Below are positions 24,268 to 29,267 of a DNA stretch of 29,612 bases, one piece after another. Below the pieces are notes generated by a model. It did not search any database, was not told the origin of the DNA, and saw nothing but the letters and a program-made list of their open reading frames with translations. The translations under genes were made by a program, and so were the position numbers. Within the stretch, counting starts at the first letter, position 1; the number at the start of each line of letters is the position of its first letter. The DNA comes from a virus (taxonomy: Duplodnaviria; Heunggongvirae; Uroviricota; Caudoviricetes), in the IMG/VR virus record IMGVR_UViG_2713896904_000009, one strand, 5' to 3'.

Positions 24268-24727
24268 TTACCACCCCACCAGCCTCTTTAAATCGGGCAA
24301 TCAGGTCACCGATTTTATGTTCATACTGACCGTAACCTGCACCGGGTAATGAAGCCCATATATTGCTGCAACGGTCGATTGCCTGACGAATATCGCCGCG
24401 ATCAATCATCGGCAAAGCGCCACGCTCTTTAATCTGTTGCAGTGCCACAGCGTCCTGGTTTTTTGGAGAGAAGTCTTTCAGGCCAAGCTGTTTACAGTAA
24501 GCATCCCACCAGCGTGAAAGAATCTGATAACGACCAGCTGCTGTTGATTTAAGTTTCGGGTTTAGTGTGACAAGTTTGCGAGGATGATCGGAGTAATCAG
24601 TGAATAGTTCGCCTCCAACAATAACGTCATAACCGTGGTTACATGTCGGTTGCCGTCCATTATCCGTTCCTTCTGACCATGCCACCATATCGAGGAAAGC
24701 TTTACGCTGGGAATTTAGTACCTGCAT
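24251..24727 (-). CDS. endolysin, lambda R-like lytic transglycosylase
   Basis: 158 aa; NQRKAFLDMVAWSEGTDNGRQ...HGYDVIVGGELFTDYSDHPRKLVTLNPKLKST...RYQ is near-identical to lambda R as I recall it. Confidence 0.95.
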   Translation of the reverse strand: MQVLNSQRKAFLDMVAWSEGTDNGRQPTCNHGYDVIVGGELFTDYSDHPRKLVTLNPKLKSTAAGRYQILSRWWDAYCKQLGLKDFSPKNQDAVALQQIKERGALPMIDRGDIRQAIDRCSNIWASLPGAGYGQYEHKIGDLIARFKEAGGVVNEVEL

Positions 24728-24730
24728 AAA

Positions 24731-25090
24731 TTACTCCTTAGAGCCACCAAACTTGTTACCGATTACTCTCATTGCAGCCCCACGAATTGCATCGACCCCG
24801 ATCAGCCCCACCCCACCACCAATGGCAACAGAAAGCGATTTAGGCCATCCGACATACTCAAGCGCGGATGCAAATGTCAGCGTCAGAGCGCCACAGAGCA
24901 AAATTTCGAGTGTTTTTCGTTTCCAGCCGCCACCACCACCAAAATAGGCAATACGCAAACCAGCCATAACAATCGACATAATCACTGCGCCCAGCGGCGT
25001 ATCTCCACGCCACCAGCTCTGGAACAACTCCAGCCAGTCCGGCCAGGTATTTGGGTTATGAGGCATTTCGTCATCTCTCACCTCGCACAT
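24731..25090 (-). CDS. holin, lambda S family (class I, three TM)
   Basis: 119-aa ORF upstream of the endolysin; LGAVIMSIVMAGLRIAYFGGGGG parallels lambda S [20 protein letters not shown]; two in-frame Met (M1, M9) could give a dual start. Confidence 0.75.
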   Translation of the reverse strand: MCEVRDDEMPHNPNTWPDWLELFQSWWRGDTPLGAVIMSIVMAGLRIAYFGGGGGWKRKTLEILLCGALTLTFASALEYVGWPKSLSVAIGGGVGLIGVDAIRGAAMRVIGNKFGGSKE

Positions 25091-25295
25091 ATCGCGGGTG
25101 CAAATTGAGGGAATAAAAAATCCCCGAATATTCCAGGAGCGGAAACGGGGAAAGGCGTCGCACTAAATGGACCTGTCAGCGGCCTTAAATAAAAAAAACC
25201 GGCACATACTAGGGTCAGATGAAGTGTCAGATTAAGCATCTGGCGATATAAATTCTCGTTTGATATCGTTACATCGCCAAAAGTAACAACTATCA

Positions 25296-25820
25296 ATGGA
25301 GAAATTAATGAAACTATTTATGGTTGATCGCCGAGGAATATACTCAACAGGCGATATCGTTACACCAAAGCAATTCTCCGATATAACTCCTGTTGAAATG
25401 TCATCTCTGGTAGACAAACTTTTTCCGCGCGGGCTTGCTCCACAAGGCGAAGGATACCTCATTAATAATGCGGCAAAAATTTATAATAAAAACGAACTCA
25501 TCGACTGGGGACTTGAGTTTTACCGAAGAGGAGTTTGCCCGCAAAAACCTTCTCGCTATACGTCACTCTTCGCCTGGGGTAACCTGGAGGAGGCTAAACA
25601 TTTTCGACTTACAGACGGAAAACCATCAGATAAAATTTTCATAATACAAACAGATAGTTATCATCGCGGAGATATGTCATTATTAAGAAATGATACATCG
25701 GTATTGGAATTCACCTACAGAATGGAGCTTTACTGGTCAGGAAAAACTTTTAACCCTGATCCAGTCTGGGAATACATTTGTCCGTTACCAGTAACTATCG
25801 GTGAACAAGTCCTTGCTTAA
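25296..25820 (+). CDS. hypothetical protein (antisense moron within the late region)
   Basis: 174-aa ORF; likely start is the second ATG at 25308 (GGAG 8 nt upstream). AT-rich; an imperfect inverted repeat TGGCGATAT...ATATCGCCA-like lies upstream. No motif recognised. Confidence 0.5.
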   Translation: MEKLMKLFMVDRRGIYSTGDIVTPKQFSDITPVEMSSLVDKLFPRGLAPQGEGYLINNAAKIYNKNELIDWGLEFYRRGVCPQKPSRYTSLFAWGNLEEAKHFRLTDGKPSDKIFIIQTDSYHRGDMSLLRNDTSVLEFTYRMELYWSGKTFNPDPVWEYICPLPVTIGEQVLA

Positions 25821-26074
25821 TCCCCTTCATCCCAATAAAGACCTTTCGCGGCACAATGAGGACGGTAAGGATAGCAATAACTTGCTCTGACGTTACCAAC
25901 CAGCGTGCCACTTTCTTTGAATGCCTTATCTCCGTTCTTGAGCTGTGATAAGGCATTTTCAAGCTCAGCTATAGCGACAGCCATGTCTTCGCTTTCTACA
26001 TACAGTGAAAAACCTTTAATGGGTGAACTCATGGTAAGTGGGATCATAGATATTTGATGATGGTGTGAATGCAT
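25817..26074 (-). CDS. hypothetical small protein (His-rich N-terminus), downstream of the DNA methyltransferase
   Basis: About 85 aa from ATG 26074 (strong SD GGGAGG 6 nt upstream; MHSHHHQISMIPL...); stop overlaps the stop of the convergent plus-strand gene. Confidence 0.45.
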   Translation of the reverse strand: MHSHHHQISMIPLTMSSPIKGFSLYVESEDMAVAIAELENALSQLKNGDKAFKESGTLVGNVRASYCYPYRPHCAAKGLYWDEGD

Positions 26075-26124
26075 AAATAGCCTCCCAGTGAAAAAATTAG
26101 CGAATAAAAGCTCTGACACCAGAA

Positions 26125-27177
26125 TTATTTCCCCACCAGTTCACTTACCTCTTTCACCGTCTGGTTAAACCGATCTGACTCAAGCTCAACACCTAACGCC
26201 CGACGCCCCATCGCCATTGCTGCTTTTATTGTGGAACCGGATCCCATAAAGAAATCAGCAACCAGATCGCCTGGTCGACTACTGGCATTGATTATTTGCC
26301 GGAGCATATCCGCAGGCTTCTCACACGGATGTTTACCCGGGTAGAACTGAACGGGTTTATGCGTCCAGACGTCGGTATAAGGCACGGAAACTGATACGGA
26401 GAAATAGCGCCGGAGAGTTTTAAACTCATCCAGCAATTCAGAATATTTGCGATTCAGTGAATCATAAGATGCCACCAGCTGGTGGTGTGGTTGTTCCAGT
26501 TGTTGTTCCTGAAACTTCTCTGCCGCTATACGGGAAAACAGTGCCTGCAACTTCCGGTAGTCAGCCTCATTCGGCAACTGCCACTGACTGGCACCAAACC
26601 AGTGGGAAACCATGTTTTTCTTACCAGTGGCTTCGGCAATCTGTTTTGCCGTTATACCCAGTTCGGCACGAGCATCCCTGAAATACGAAATCAGCGGTGC
26701 CATTATGTGCTGTTTGAGTTGACTTTCTTTTGCCGCATAGCCGTCACTTTTGCCGCGATATGGCCCCTGGTAATGTTCAGCAAACAGAACGCGTTCTGTT
26801 GCGGGAAAATATGCGCGCAGACTTTCTTTATTACACCCGTTCCATCGTCCGGACGGCTTCGCCCAGATAATATGGTTAAGAACGTTGAAACGTTCACGCA
26901 TCATGATCTCGATATCAGATGCGAGGCGATGTCCACAGAACAGGTAAAGGCTTCCGGCAGGTTTCAGCACCCGCCAGAACTGAGCCAGACAGTGGTCCAG
27001 CCACTTCAGGTAATCTTCGTCCCCTTTCCACTGATTGTCCCAGCCGTTGGGTTTCACCTTGAAGTACGGCGGATCGGTAACAATCAGGTCAATGGAATCA
27101 TCAGGCAGGGACTGAATAAAATGCAGGCAATCAGCGTTGATTAAATCAACACTGTTTATTTTTACAGTATTTTTCAT
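26125..27177 (-). CDS. orphan DNA methyltransferase (beta-class N6-adenine or N4-cytosine)
   Basis: 350 aa; motif IV DPPY near the N-terminus (LIVTDPPYF) and motif I FxGSGST near the C-terminus (DFFMGSGSTIKAA). No adjacent restriction endonuclease gene. Confidence 0.85.
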   Translation of the reverse strand: MKNTVKINSVDLINADCLHFIQSLPDDSIDLIVTDPPYFKVKPNGWDNQWKGDEDYLKWLDHCLAQFWRVLKPAGSLYLFCGHRLASDIEIMMRERFNVLNHIIWAKPSGRWNGCNKESLRAYFPATERVLFAEHYQGPYRGKSDGYAAKESQLKQHIMAPLISYFRDARAELGITAKQIAEATGKKNMVSHWFGASQWQLPNEADYRKLQALFSRIAAEKFQEQQLEQPHHQLVASYDSLNRKYSELLDEFKTLRRYFSVSVSVPYTDVWTHKPVQFYPGKHPCEKPADMLRQIINASSRPGDLVADFFMGSGSTIKAAMAMGRRALGVELESDRFNQTVKEVSELVGK

Positions 27178-27661: not shown

Positions 27662-27683
27662 ACAAAAAACCGCTCAGCGGCGG
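27662..27683 (-). terminator. terminator-like hairpin (minus strand)
   Basis: Minus-strand CCGC-CGCTGA-GCGG followed by TTTTTTG; short stem. Confidence 0.35.
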
Positions 27684-27805: not shown

Positions 27806-28732
27806 ATGAAAGTTAGAAGCATAGGATTTACAATAAATAACAATAACAAAAACATTAATACCGTTGACGTAATGAATGCTTTTATCAACGCATCAAACAG
27901 AGAACACAGTCGCACAGACTATACTCGTAAAATTCTCATTTCGGATGTGAATGATTTCTATTATGGATTAGTTGTCACATTCAGAAACCAAAAAAAGAAC
28001 TGTAAGTCGCAATTTGTTGATGGTAAATTCCAGCTTAAAATTGAAGATCTTAAAGGAAGTGACAAACTTGCTAATTTCAACTTTTTCTTAATTAAAAAAT
28101 CTAATCTTTCTGGTCTCTATATGTATCACCACGGTTCATGCAGTCTGAACACTCTCTTTTCTCATTTAGAAACAATAAGTAATGAATTTATCAGAAATCA
28201 AAATAAAGAAGAAATAAAAAAACTTGGTGATAAACCAAAACAAAAAGAAGTAACTGCAATAAATAAAAAATACAAAGAAAGACTGACTTTCAGCCTTATG
28301 ACAAATAAAAACAACATTCAGAGTGTTTTATGTCAATTCAAAGAGATTAAAAGGACAAGCTTTAAATTTAATTATATAGATTTTAAAGGTGGACCAATGA
28401 CTGCGCTTGAACAATTTGTTAACACCACCACAATAGATATGAATTTTAATTCTAGCGACAGAACAAAAGTGCAACAACTATCTCAGAATCTTTCAAATAT
28501 TTATAATTCTATGAGTGGAGTTGATAAAGCACAGGTTATTGCAGTAAACCATGCAGGGATAGAAAAAACCATTGATTTTATGAACTGCCCTGTTTTTTTT
28601 GAAACATACGATTTCGATGTAATTGCCGATAAAGTCAATGGATTGACAAACGATAATTATACAACAAACCCTGTTTTTGATATGATAAAAGAAGAAATGC
28701 TGAACGGGACGAATAAAAATGCCTTTATATGA
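27806..28732 (+). CDS. hypothetical soluble protein, component A of a two-gene AT-rich cassette (candidate defence/abortive-infection sensor)
   Basis: 308-aa ORF, very AT-rich and Asn/Lys-rich; preceded by TATAAT at 27722-27727; no Walker A, DxD nucleotidyltransferase or HEPN-like motif seen by eye. Confidence 0.6.
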   Translation: MKVRSIGFTINNNNKNINTVDVMNAFINASNREHSRTDYTRKILISDVNDFYYGLVVTFRNQKKNCKSQFVDGKFQLKIEDLKGSDKLANFNFFLIKKSNLSGLYMYHHGSCSLNTLFSHLETISNEFIRNQNKEEIKKLGDKPKQKEVTAINKKYKERLTFSLMTNKNNIQSVLCQFKEIKRTSFKFNYIDFKGGPMTALEQFVNTTTIDMNFNSSDRTKVQQLSQNLSNIYNSMSGVDKAQVIAVNHAGIEKTIDFMNCPVFFETYDFDVIADKVNGLTNDNYTTNPVFDMIKEEMLNGTNKNAFI

Positions 28733-29267
28733 ATGGCTAATAAATAAAAGATTGAGGTATCAGTACCTTACACTGCTTGCATTCTCGATCCTGGCATTGC
28801 TTGCACTTTACCTATTGTACAGAAACACACCTAAAGTAAGTGTTAACTTTTTTGATTTTTATCATAAAAACTTACGAGGCTATCTCTTCTCCGGTTTTAT
28901 TTCCGTGGGCTCATTTTTATTGAGCCTACATACCTTTGTCATAATAAATTTACGCGATAAGGTTTTTGCAACTCAGGAATATAAGGAAATTTATAGCATT
29001 GCCACTGGTATATCTATTGACAAAATCAATGATAGTGTATTTTATAAACCTTTAGACAATTTATCCTCATTTATTAATACATCAATATTATGTTCTATCA
29101 CAACAGCAATTGCACAGTTCACTATTGGACTTTCAACTAATTTATATGCATGCTTATTTTGCGTATGGCTTGCAATACTAACGGTATTTCTTTTATTACA
29201 TTGCCTCATCATAATCAGACAAAATATTAAAATTTTATTAAAGCAACAGAGAAAAAAAGGGGGGTAA
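28719..29267 (+). CDS. hypothetical four-helix membrane protein, component B of the cassette (candidate membrane effector)
   Basis: 182-aa ORF whose start overlaps the end of component A by 14 nt; four hydrophobic helices (about residues 17-35, 55-78, 124-140, 144-168); basic C-terminus. Confidence 0.6.
   Translation: MPLYEWLINKRLRYQYLTLLAFSILALLALYLLYRNTPKVSVNFFDFYHKNLRGYLFSGFISVGSFLLSLHTFVIINLRDKVFATQEYKEIYSIATGISIDKINDSVFYKPLDNLSSFINTSILCSITTAIAQFTIGLSTNLYACLFCVWLAILTVFLLLHCLIIIRQNIKILLKQQRKKGG

Follow-up and report, generated by a model that had tools for sequence, protein, structure and literature searches.

The DNA analysed in this work (hereafter the window) is a 29,612-nucleotide (nt) stretch of an Escherichia coli lambdoid prophage of the SfV/mEp460 type (IMG/VR record IMGVR_UViG_2713896904_000009), whose late region lies on the minus strand, and the present report concerns two convergent genes located in it between the DNA methyltransferase and holin genes. 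Our sequence comparisons indicate that this region is a mobile two-gene prophage cassette (moron), consisting of a gene for a 170 amino acid (aa) protein with a predicted DUF2441/BC2332-like ADP-ribosyltransferase (ART) fold and a gene on the opposite strand for an 85 aa partner protein, the pairing of which is conserved in different types of prophages. The arrangement of the cassette suggests that the 85 aa partner probably switches the ART-fold enzyme off when the prophage awakens. A preliminary description of this DNA, made without database searches, had reported a plus-strand open reading frame (ORF) of 170-174 aa with its own Shine-Dalgarno sequence, facing a minus-strand His-rich ORF of 85 aa with a strong Shine-Dalgarno sequence, with overlapping stop codons (cTTAa), and all of these features are present as follows:

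25308-25820, plus strand: gene for the 170 aa ART-fold protein, 513 nt, stop codon TAA at 25818-25820 (from the sequence, comparison and a PGAP gene of 513 nt)
26074-25817, minus strand: gene for the 85 aa partner, 258 nt, product starting MHSHHHQ (from the sequence, homologues and alignment)
25817-25820: overlap of the two convergent genes, TTAA, 4 nt (from the sequence)
25298-25301, plus strand: Shine-Dalgarno sequence GGAG of the ART gene, 6 nt spacer to the ATG at 25308
26086-26081, minus strand: strong Shine-Dalgarno sequence GGGAGG of the 85 aa gene, 6 nt spacer to the ATG at 26074

The stop codons of the two genes share 2 nt, the minus-strand TAA occupying positions 25819-25817, and because the genes themselves overlap by 4 nt there is no space for a terminator between them. 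Longer ORFs are available on both strands (25296-25820, 174 aa, plus strand; from the GTG at 26119, 100 aa, minus strand), and the start codons of both were rejected: the ATG at 25296 is out of frame in the copies from E. coli PCP06235 and Salmonella, and the form of the minus-strand gene that is conserved in homologues is 85 aa long. Copies from E. coli, Salmonella and Arsenophonus retain the GGAG of the ART gene, and in Izhakiella it is shifted. Pairwise ratios of nonsynonymous to synonymous substitution (dN/dS) are 0.13-0.21 for the 170 aa gene and 0.09-0.42 for the 85 aa gene, over dS values of up to about 1-2, and E. coli, Salmonella and Izhakiella all have the geometry of 513 nt, 258 nt and a 4 nt overlap, which Arsenophonus shares except for a small gene of 270 nt. 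Both frames are under purifying selection and are more than chance ORFs. We flag the 85 aa gene as one that is inconsistently annotated by current pipelines (as 100 aa, as 76 aa, or not at all); both of these lengths are found for its E. coli copies in RefSeq, and two further records list one hypothetical protein only under the match.

The 170 aa protein, a member of PHROG 5663 (function unknown), had been described as lacking any recognisable motif, a statement that is superseded by homology and structure searches, according to which the protein is a DUF2441/BC2332-like protein with a predicted ART fold. Among 12 close homologues, 11 match PF10386 (DUF2441; best E value 4.6e-8), those that are 71-86% identical being among them, and in the precomputed database annotation PF10386 is assigned to all homologues. 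A profile of this clade retrieves 152 proteins at E <= 0.001, and 119 of the 120 matches listed carry PF10386, the sole exception among them (P0010) being a truncated Izhakiella product. The same profile matches BC2332 (PDB 2aua) at an E value of 3.6e-7 and 18% identity, with a number of motifs common to the 170 aa protein and 2aua (viz. R73, P81-S82-R83, G121-D122, Y142-W143-x-G145, and E155), and ten residues that are invariant in 68 diverse members of the family are all present in the window protein (D7, G42, E70, R73, P81, R83, M123, Y142, W143, and E155). DUF2441 belongs to the ART clan of Pfam, BC2332-like proteins are placed in SCOP d.166.1, and ProFunc has matched 2aua to diphtheria-toxin active-site templates (PMC7955679, PMC3000352, PMC3024214). 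The 170 aa protein is predicted to have the same fold as BC2332, namely the split beta-sheet, NAD+-binding (nicotinamide adenine dinucleotide-binding) ART fold, and the structural neighbours of its model include LT, pertussis toxin, ArtA, OspC3, and SopF. The invariant E155 maps to the fifth predicted strand, and S82-R83/T85-S86 precede the second strand; strand 1 ends with an invariant Asp (D7), not His or Arg, and R9 is conserved in the close clade only. One other candidate identity, that of the Gifsy-encoded defence protein GiPD474, was rejected, as GiPD474 is an unrelated ATPase-domain protein. A scan of NCBIfam gave no match for either protein of the cassette.

The DUF2441 family is also found in Bacillus, Gordonia phages, Planctomycetes, and Paraburkholderia. 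Prophages also carry other DUF2441 genes, which have the orientation of lysogeny genes and are placed within an Xre or CI repressor operon or, in antisense, between the lysis and terminase genes. In uninduced S. Typhimurium, expression and regulation of a DUF2441 gene have been detected (PMC9867438). In Izhakiella australiensis (locus L013, 1352-1864) the ART gene has one in-frame nonsense codon at residue 118, and the convergent small gene is intact.

Searches of Pfam, PHROG, PADLOC, NCBIfam, and PDB gave no hit for the 85 aa protein, and its fold likewise had no match. In 1.84 billion representative proteins scanned in full with HMMER there were 10 matches to its family, one of which (P0144, a 411 aa repeat protein) looks like a spurious helix-motif match, and on these searches the protein represents a very small orphan family. 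Its sequence shows a His-rich N-terminus, with an HHH run that is present in the close clade, a predicted beta-alpha-beta-beta core, and a conserved C-terminal tail (YxYPxRPHCAAKGLYWDE); the other conserved elements are a beta-strand (FSLYVESED), a helix (AIxxLExALxxL) and a beta-hairpin. A HicB-like/UPF0150 identity was rejected, as hhalign comparisons with two HicB-like proteins of sister prophages gave a probability below 1% and Pfam gave no match.

The pairing of the two genes extends well beyond the window. All 10 IMG/VR contigs that carry the ART gene at >=71% identity also carry the 85 aa gene, and the same 4 nt overlap is found in Salmonella and Arsenophonus. In BcepMu-like prophages (Salmonella Llandoff, Yersinia enterocolitica, and Klebsiella phage KP12), whose DUF2441 genes are 34-38% identical to the window gene, a homologue of the 85 aa gene (BLASTP 6e-9; hhalign 90.7%; hmmsearch 2e-7) lies convergently directly after the DUF2441 gene. 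The pairing is conserved, and not accidental, because this convergent position of the small gene is retained beside such distant DUF2441 genes. The distance from stop codon to stop codon is -4 nt in the lambdoid prophages and +8, +15 or -80 nt in the BcepMu-like prophages, with no terminator between the genes, and therefore the transcripts must overlap in every case. Among 52 loci searched, the intact 85 aa gene always lies beside a DUF2441 coding sequence (which in Izhakiella is the one with the nonsense codon) and it occurs alone only as truncated remnants. Decay strikes both genes, as one deletion spans both 3' ends in locus L046, and in locus L045 the ART gene is gone beside a truncated small gene. 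In KP12 (OM835952.1; locus L052, 3901-4284, minus strand) the homologue of the small partner is unannotated, and its frame and the 3' end of the DUF2441 gene have about 80 nt in common.

A small convergent gene is also present 6 nt past the stop codon of a DUF2441-like gene in Gordonia phage Guacamole (gp33/gp34; locus L051, 3492-4222). The Gordonia DUF2441-like gene is found in temperate phages, near the integrase and immunity repressor genes, and the small convergent protein shows no obvious similarity to the enterobacterial 85 aa partner.

The limits of the cassette in the window are evident from a comparison with phage SfV:

25102-26116: insertion relative to phage SfV, the whole cassette, 1015 bp (from blastn breakpoints, SfV matching 24500-25101 and 26117-26700)

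At the same position SfV has just 33 bp, which correspond to an annotated terminator, and in SfV, mEp460_4F5, and vB_EcoM-720R4, all of which lack the insertion, the methyltransferase gene is directly beside the holin gene. The inserted DNA has a GC content of 41.3% (window, 50.3%), and the cassette is present in 7 of 5426 complete E. coli genomes. Hence, on the basis of its insertion relative to SfV, its low GC content and its rarity in E. coli, the pair represents cargo and not core phage DNA, as the preliminary description had proposed for the plus-strand gene. The cassette also occurs in E. coli prophages whose holin is of another type (class II), in prophages of Salmonella, where it lies between a DUF1133-type Q gene and the holin gene (without a methyltransferase gene there), in an Arsenophonus prophage with the methyltransferase gene on its other side, and in Izhakiella. 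Neither gene was found at the DNA level in any isolated phage genome (collection of 50,697 records), and a scan of species-representative genomes with the ART profile gave a single locus, that of Izhakiella with the nonsense codon. Other late-antisense cargo (HicAB, glycosyltransferase) fills the slot from Q to the lysis genes in sister prophages, beside truncated remnants of the cassette. In two of these loci (L045, 3713-4746; L046, 4197-4571) HicA/HicB genes oriented against the late operon adjoin truncated remnants of the 85 aa gene; the slot between Q and holin is a hot-spot of cargo exchange. In another prophage (IMGVR_UViG_2657244961_000008; locus L014, 6517-7844) an IS4-family element (ISVsa5/IS10-like, with 99.5% identity to copies on plasmids) has entered precisely where the two stop codons overlap, with a duplication of about 9-10 bp (window 25814-25823), so that both ORFs retain their stop codons, which are now 1.3 kb apart.

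The sequences flanking the two genes differ in what travels with the cassette. The following features lie upstream of the ART gene and between the cassette and the holin gene:

25227-25243, plus strand: inverted repeat (T)CAGAT-N5-ATCTG(G), directly upstream of the putative -35 region of the ART gene and overlapping it
25261-25269, plus strand: putative extended -10 sequence TGaTATCGT for the ART gene, read from the alignment, within the almost invariant block
25241-25251 / 25269-25279, plus strand: imperfect inverted repeat TGGCGATATAA / TTACATCGCCA (repeat search; 11 nt, 91% complementary, 17 nt apart)
25122-25138, minus strand: terminator-like hairpin with T-run between the cassette and the holin gene (consensus scan; a pattern match only)

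The block of about 50-120 bp that precedes the ART gene moves with the cassette, and its sequence hardly varies from E. coli to Arsenophonus. In the upstream alignment TCTGGCG is invariant in all five lineages, CAGAT-N5-ATCTG (25228-25242) is kept in 4 of the 5, and the form CCAGAT...(A/G)TCTGG is found in E. coli, Salmonella, and Izhakiella; the repeat at 25227-25243 is possibly an operator. The imperfect inverted repeat that the preliminary description had noted upstream of the plus-strand ORF is the one listed at 25241-25279, and it is only partly conserved in other lineages. No promoter was called ahead of the ART gene by a two-hexamer promoter scan. That a conserved upstream block moves with the cassette fits a self-promoted moron that would be expressed in the lysogen, lysogen expression of the plus-strand gene having been suggested in the preliminary description. 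The hairpin at 25122-25138 is at the position of the annotated terminator of SfV, and an analogue is present on the minus strand in Salmonella (locus L004, 5910-5887).

Upstream of the 85 aa gene, the homology of the cassette stops about 22 nt before the ATG at 26074 (with the PCP06235-type cassette, at 26096), and therefore no promoter travels with this gene. The Shine-Dalgarno sequence alone is common to the different contexts, and the regions further upstream are unrelated. This difference, a conserved upstream block for the ART gene but only a Shine-Dalgarno sequence for the 85 aa gene, suggests that the latter would depend on the late (Q-dependent) transcription of the phage, and that it would be expressed at the corresponding time. 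The late-strand order in the window is Q, tR'-like terminator, a 75 aa gene, methyltransferase, the two-gene region, holin S, endolysin, Rz, and terminase, and the parts of it that bear on the cassette are as follows:

29280 onwards, minus strand: Q, at the upstream end of the late region
27669-27681, minus strand: tR'-like terminator downstream of Q (terminator scan; homologous to the annotated terminator after Q in SfV)
26125-27177, minus strand: phage N6_N4 DNA methyltransferase (Pfam PF01555, 9e-42; PADLOC MTase_II; 95% identical to SfV orf48)
24731-25090, minus strand: holin S, lambda-type, first lysis gene (Pfam Phage_holin_3_1, 3e-27; PHROG 126)

The Pfam matches of the last two genes bear out the earlier placement of the region between a holin and a DNA methyltransferase gene. 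The tR'-like terminator (27681-27669) would mark the start of the Q-dependent late unit that holds the 85 aa gene, with the methyltransferase as the gene upstream of it within one late transcription unit. The ART gene is antisense to the late operon, as had been described, and late transcription reaches holin S only after crossing the cassette antisense to the ART gene. The preliminary description had further proposed that the 85 aa gene is co-transcribed with the methyltransferase gene. This is plausible, because the 85 aa gene lies 50 nt after the methyltransferase stop codon, downstream of the tR' homologue and with no terminator between; an obligatory link of the two was rejected, as the cassette occurs without a methyltransferase gene and on either side of one, and the gene to which the 85 aa gene is linked is the ART gene. 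In Salmonella the 85 aa gene starts 22 nt after a strong hairpin terminator downstream of Q, which the scan calls as a terminator on the ART strand, and this hairpin probably also ends the ART transcript after its antisense passage over the 85 aa gene.

A DNA adenine methyltransferase gene (N6_N4 or Dam-like D12) adjoins the cassette in several unrelated contexts (window, 26125-27177; L008, 4781-5806; L047, 1986-2756; L052, 2400-3170), in some of them beside the 85 aa gene and in others divergent from the ART gene; the Salmonella lambdoid and Llandoff contexts lack it. This proximity may be a coincidence of two kinds of cargo or a functional hint.

The model that we favour for the cassette, which is tentative and which as a whole we rate somewhat below an even balance, is that of an NAD+-using, lysogen-expressed effector, acting in defence or exclusion, which induction turns off through its late-made partner and antisense transcription. 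The ART-fold enzyme would be made in the lysogen from its own conserved upstream control region and, by ADP-ribosylation or breakdown of NAD+, would exclude or abort infecting phages or otherwise modify the cell. On induction, the Q-antiterminated late transcript would read the 85 aa gene and then run antisense through the ART gene to the lysis genes. The 85 aa protein would bind and inhibit the ART-fold enzyme, late transcription would silence the ART gene by convergent, antisense transcription, and the prophage's own lytic growth would be left unharmed; convergent transcription would in this manner make the lysogenic and induced states mutually exclusive. The timing of expression, the enzymatic activity and its target, the anti-phage role, and the inhibition by the 85 aa protein are what the model proposes in addition to the genomic observations given above.

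A number of observations weigh against this model. The window protein has no Pfam hmmscan match even at E <= 10, and its membership in DUF2441 comes from its homologues, the family profile and the fold; since its relatives do match DUF2441, however, a single negative hmmscan can hide family membership. The conserved residues map imperfectly onto the canonical H-Y-E or R-S-E triads, so that catalysis is only predicted, and no function was reported for any DUF2441 protein in the literature searched. PADLOC-DB v2 has 0 families that match the 170 aa or the 85 aa protein at E <= 1. The AlphaFold2 model of the 85 aa protein is of low confidence, with a predicted local distance difference test (pLDDT) score of 60. 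Many DUF2441 genes, including an ART clade of 45% identity, are without the 85 aa partner, and the enzyme is therefore not always in need of it. Lastly, in the BcepMu-like prophages the small gene lies outside the late operon, divergent from the holin gene, and a drive by the late operon is therefore not valid everywhere.

Several of these observations would also fit other explanations. A classical type II toxin-antitoxin (addiction) pair, in which a constitutively toxic ART enzyme is countered by a continuously made, labile 85 aa antitoxin and the prophage is thereby stabilised, would account for the strict pairing within the clade, for the nonsense codon in the Izhakiella ART gene beside an intact small gene, which is the usual direction of decay in such modules, and for the HicAB toxin-antitoxin modules that fill the same slot in related prophages. 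However, the two genes are convergent and share no operon, unlike pairs that are co-transcribed from one autoregulated promoter, and no promoter travels with the 85 aa gene. In Salmonella the small gene lies right behind the terminator downstream of Q, so that it would be silent in the lysogen, the very state that requires an antitoxin, and many DUF2441 genes have neither this partner nor any conserved neighbour. We consider an addiction pair unlikely for these reasons.

The orientation and position of the ART gene are typical of lysogen-expressed morons, and together with the expression and regulation of a DUF2441 gene in uninduced S. Typhimurium (PMC9867438) they would also suit a lysogenic-conversion or counter-defence enzyme that modifies a bacterial target (a defence complex, as does the ART AcrIF11, or a physiological regulator), the 85 aa protein then being a regulator or specificity factor and not an inhibitor. 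This explanation is distinctly unlikely in our assessment, as there is no helix-turn-helix or aca-like regulator and no DNA-binding signature in the 85 aa protein, no similarity to Acr families beyond the fold is seen, and the tight convergent layout, with a small gene driven from outside, fits an on/off relation better. It is very unlikely that the 170 aa and 85 aa genes are functionally unrelated neighbours on one mobile fragment. Such an explanation could draw on the lack of a recognisable domain in the 85 aa protein and on the DUF2441 genes (the 45%-identity clade and many others) that lack the small gene, but the same convergent, abutting partner lies beside 34-38% identical DUF2441 genes in a different type of phage (BcepMu-like vs. 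lambdoid), and no intact small gene occurs away from a DUF2441 coding sequence in the 52 loci. Finally, although the stx genes of Stx phages sit in the same slot between Q and S and the structural neighbours of the model include LT, pertussis toxin, ArtA, OspC3, and SopF, a toxin against eukaryotic cells, placed between Q and the lysis genes like Shiga toxin, is extremely improbable, as the protein is only 170 aa long with no signal peptide, B subunit or translocation domain, its first beta-strand begins at residue 2 and leaves no space for a secretion signal, its family occurs in Bacillus, Gordonia phages, Planctomycetes, and Paraburkholderia, and lysis-coupled release is inapplicable because the gene is antisense to late transcription.

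Outside the cassette, the window holds a second block of antisense cargo:

27806-29267, plus strand: block between Q and the tR'-like terminator, 30.6% GC, with two overlapping genes, for a 308 aa protein (PHROG 2802, function unknown) and a 182 aa protein with hydrophobic segments

The proteins of this block have no significant match in Pfam, NCBIfam, PADLOC or PDB, and the block resembles a further moron, possibly an abortive-infection or exclusion pair.

In a wider sense, DUF2441/BC2332-like proteins could be prophage-borne, NAD+-dependent anti-phage effectors of the abortive-infection or exclusion type, with the 85 aa protein as the founder of a family of cognate inhibitors that is wired convergently into late transcription and disarms the defence on the prophage's own induction. 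This generalisation is somewhat doubtful, and if it is true it would provide the first function for DUF2441, a family for which a crystal structure (BC2332) has existed since 2005 without a biology, though its fold points to NAD+ chemistry. The function would be directly testable, and the cassette, at about 0.85 kb, is compact and suited to cloning and assay. The proposed model would likewise extend the few known prophage defences with a self-immunity device of their own (BstA/aba, Tha/Ith) by one that is based on an ART, and it would imply that Q-dependent late transcription can act as an off-switch. The fold family (functionally blank), ART effectors and prophage self-immunity are already known; the partner family and the convergent architecture wired to late transcription are undescribed.

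Among known systems and proteins, one of the closest to the 170 aa protein is BC2332 of Bacillus cereus (PDB 2aua; PF10386; SCOP d.166.1.6), with which it shares a similar single-domain size, the profile match and the common motifs. BC2332 differs in being a structural-genomics protein of unknown function from a family for which no partner gene has been described, and membership in DUF2441 therefore gives a fold and not a function. The ART-fold toxin-antitoxin and toxin-immunity pairs (viz. DarT-DarG, ParT-ParS, RES-Xre/MbcTA, Tre1-Tri1, and TreX-TriX) are co-directional operons, unlike the convergent cassette. Their toxins have no sequence similarity to the 170 aa protein, and the 85 aa protein matches none of the macrodomains, Xre/DUF2384 proteins or dedicated immunity folds that serve as their antitoxins. 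With the lambdoid morons located around the lysis genes or between these and Q (stx, bor, HicAB-type) the cassette shares the hot-spot, the low GC content, the self-contained style of promoter, gene and terminator, and the replaceability; it differs from these classical morons in that its second gene is antisense at the 3' end of the first and would be expressed only from outside the unit.

In regard to self-immunity, BstA/aba (PMC8585504) is a conceptual precedent for the logic proposed here, although aba is a DNA element and not a protein, and BstA is unrelated in sequence and fold. An experimental precedent is Tha/Ith of Staphylococcus aureus prophages, in which an accessory effector that is presumably on in the lysogen is accompanied by a small antisense gene whose product inhibits the effector after induction, the transcription of the two being mutually exclusive (PMC11087260). 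The small gene on the opposite strand and the overlapping transcripts are common to both systems, and in the cassette the genes abut or overlap at their 3' ends. Tha, however, is a HEPN RNase and not an ART, no HEPN-type match was found in Pfam scans of either protein or in the fold search of the 170 aa model, and neither partner is related in sequence or fold. Furthermore, ith is transcribed from a constitutive promoter of its own within the cI operon, whereas the 85 aa gene is devoid of one and belongs to the Q-dependent late unit. The comparison is thus one of functional logic, which for the present cassette is read from its sequence, and if the proposed model is true, the cassette would represent a Gram-negative, ART-based counterpart of the Tha/Ith autoimmunity switch.

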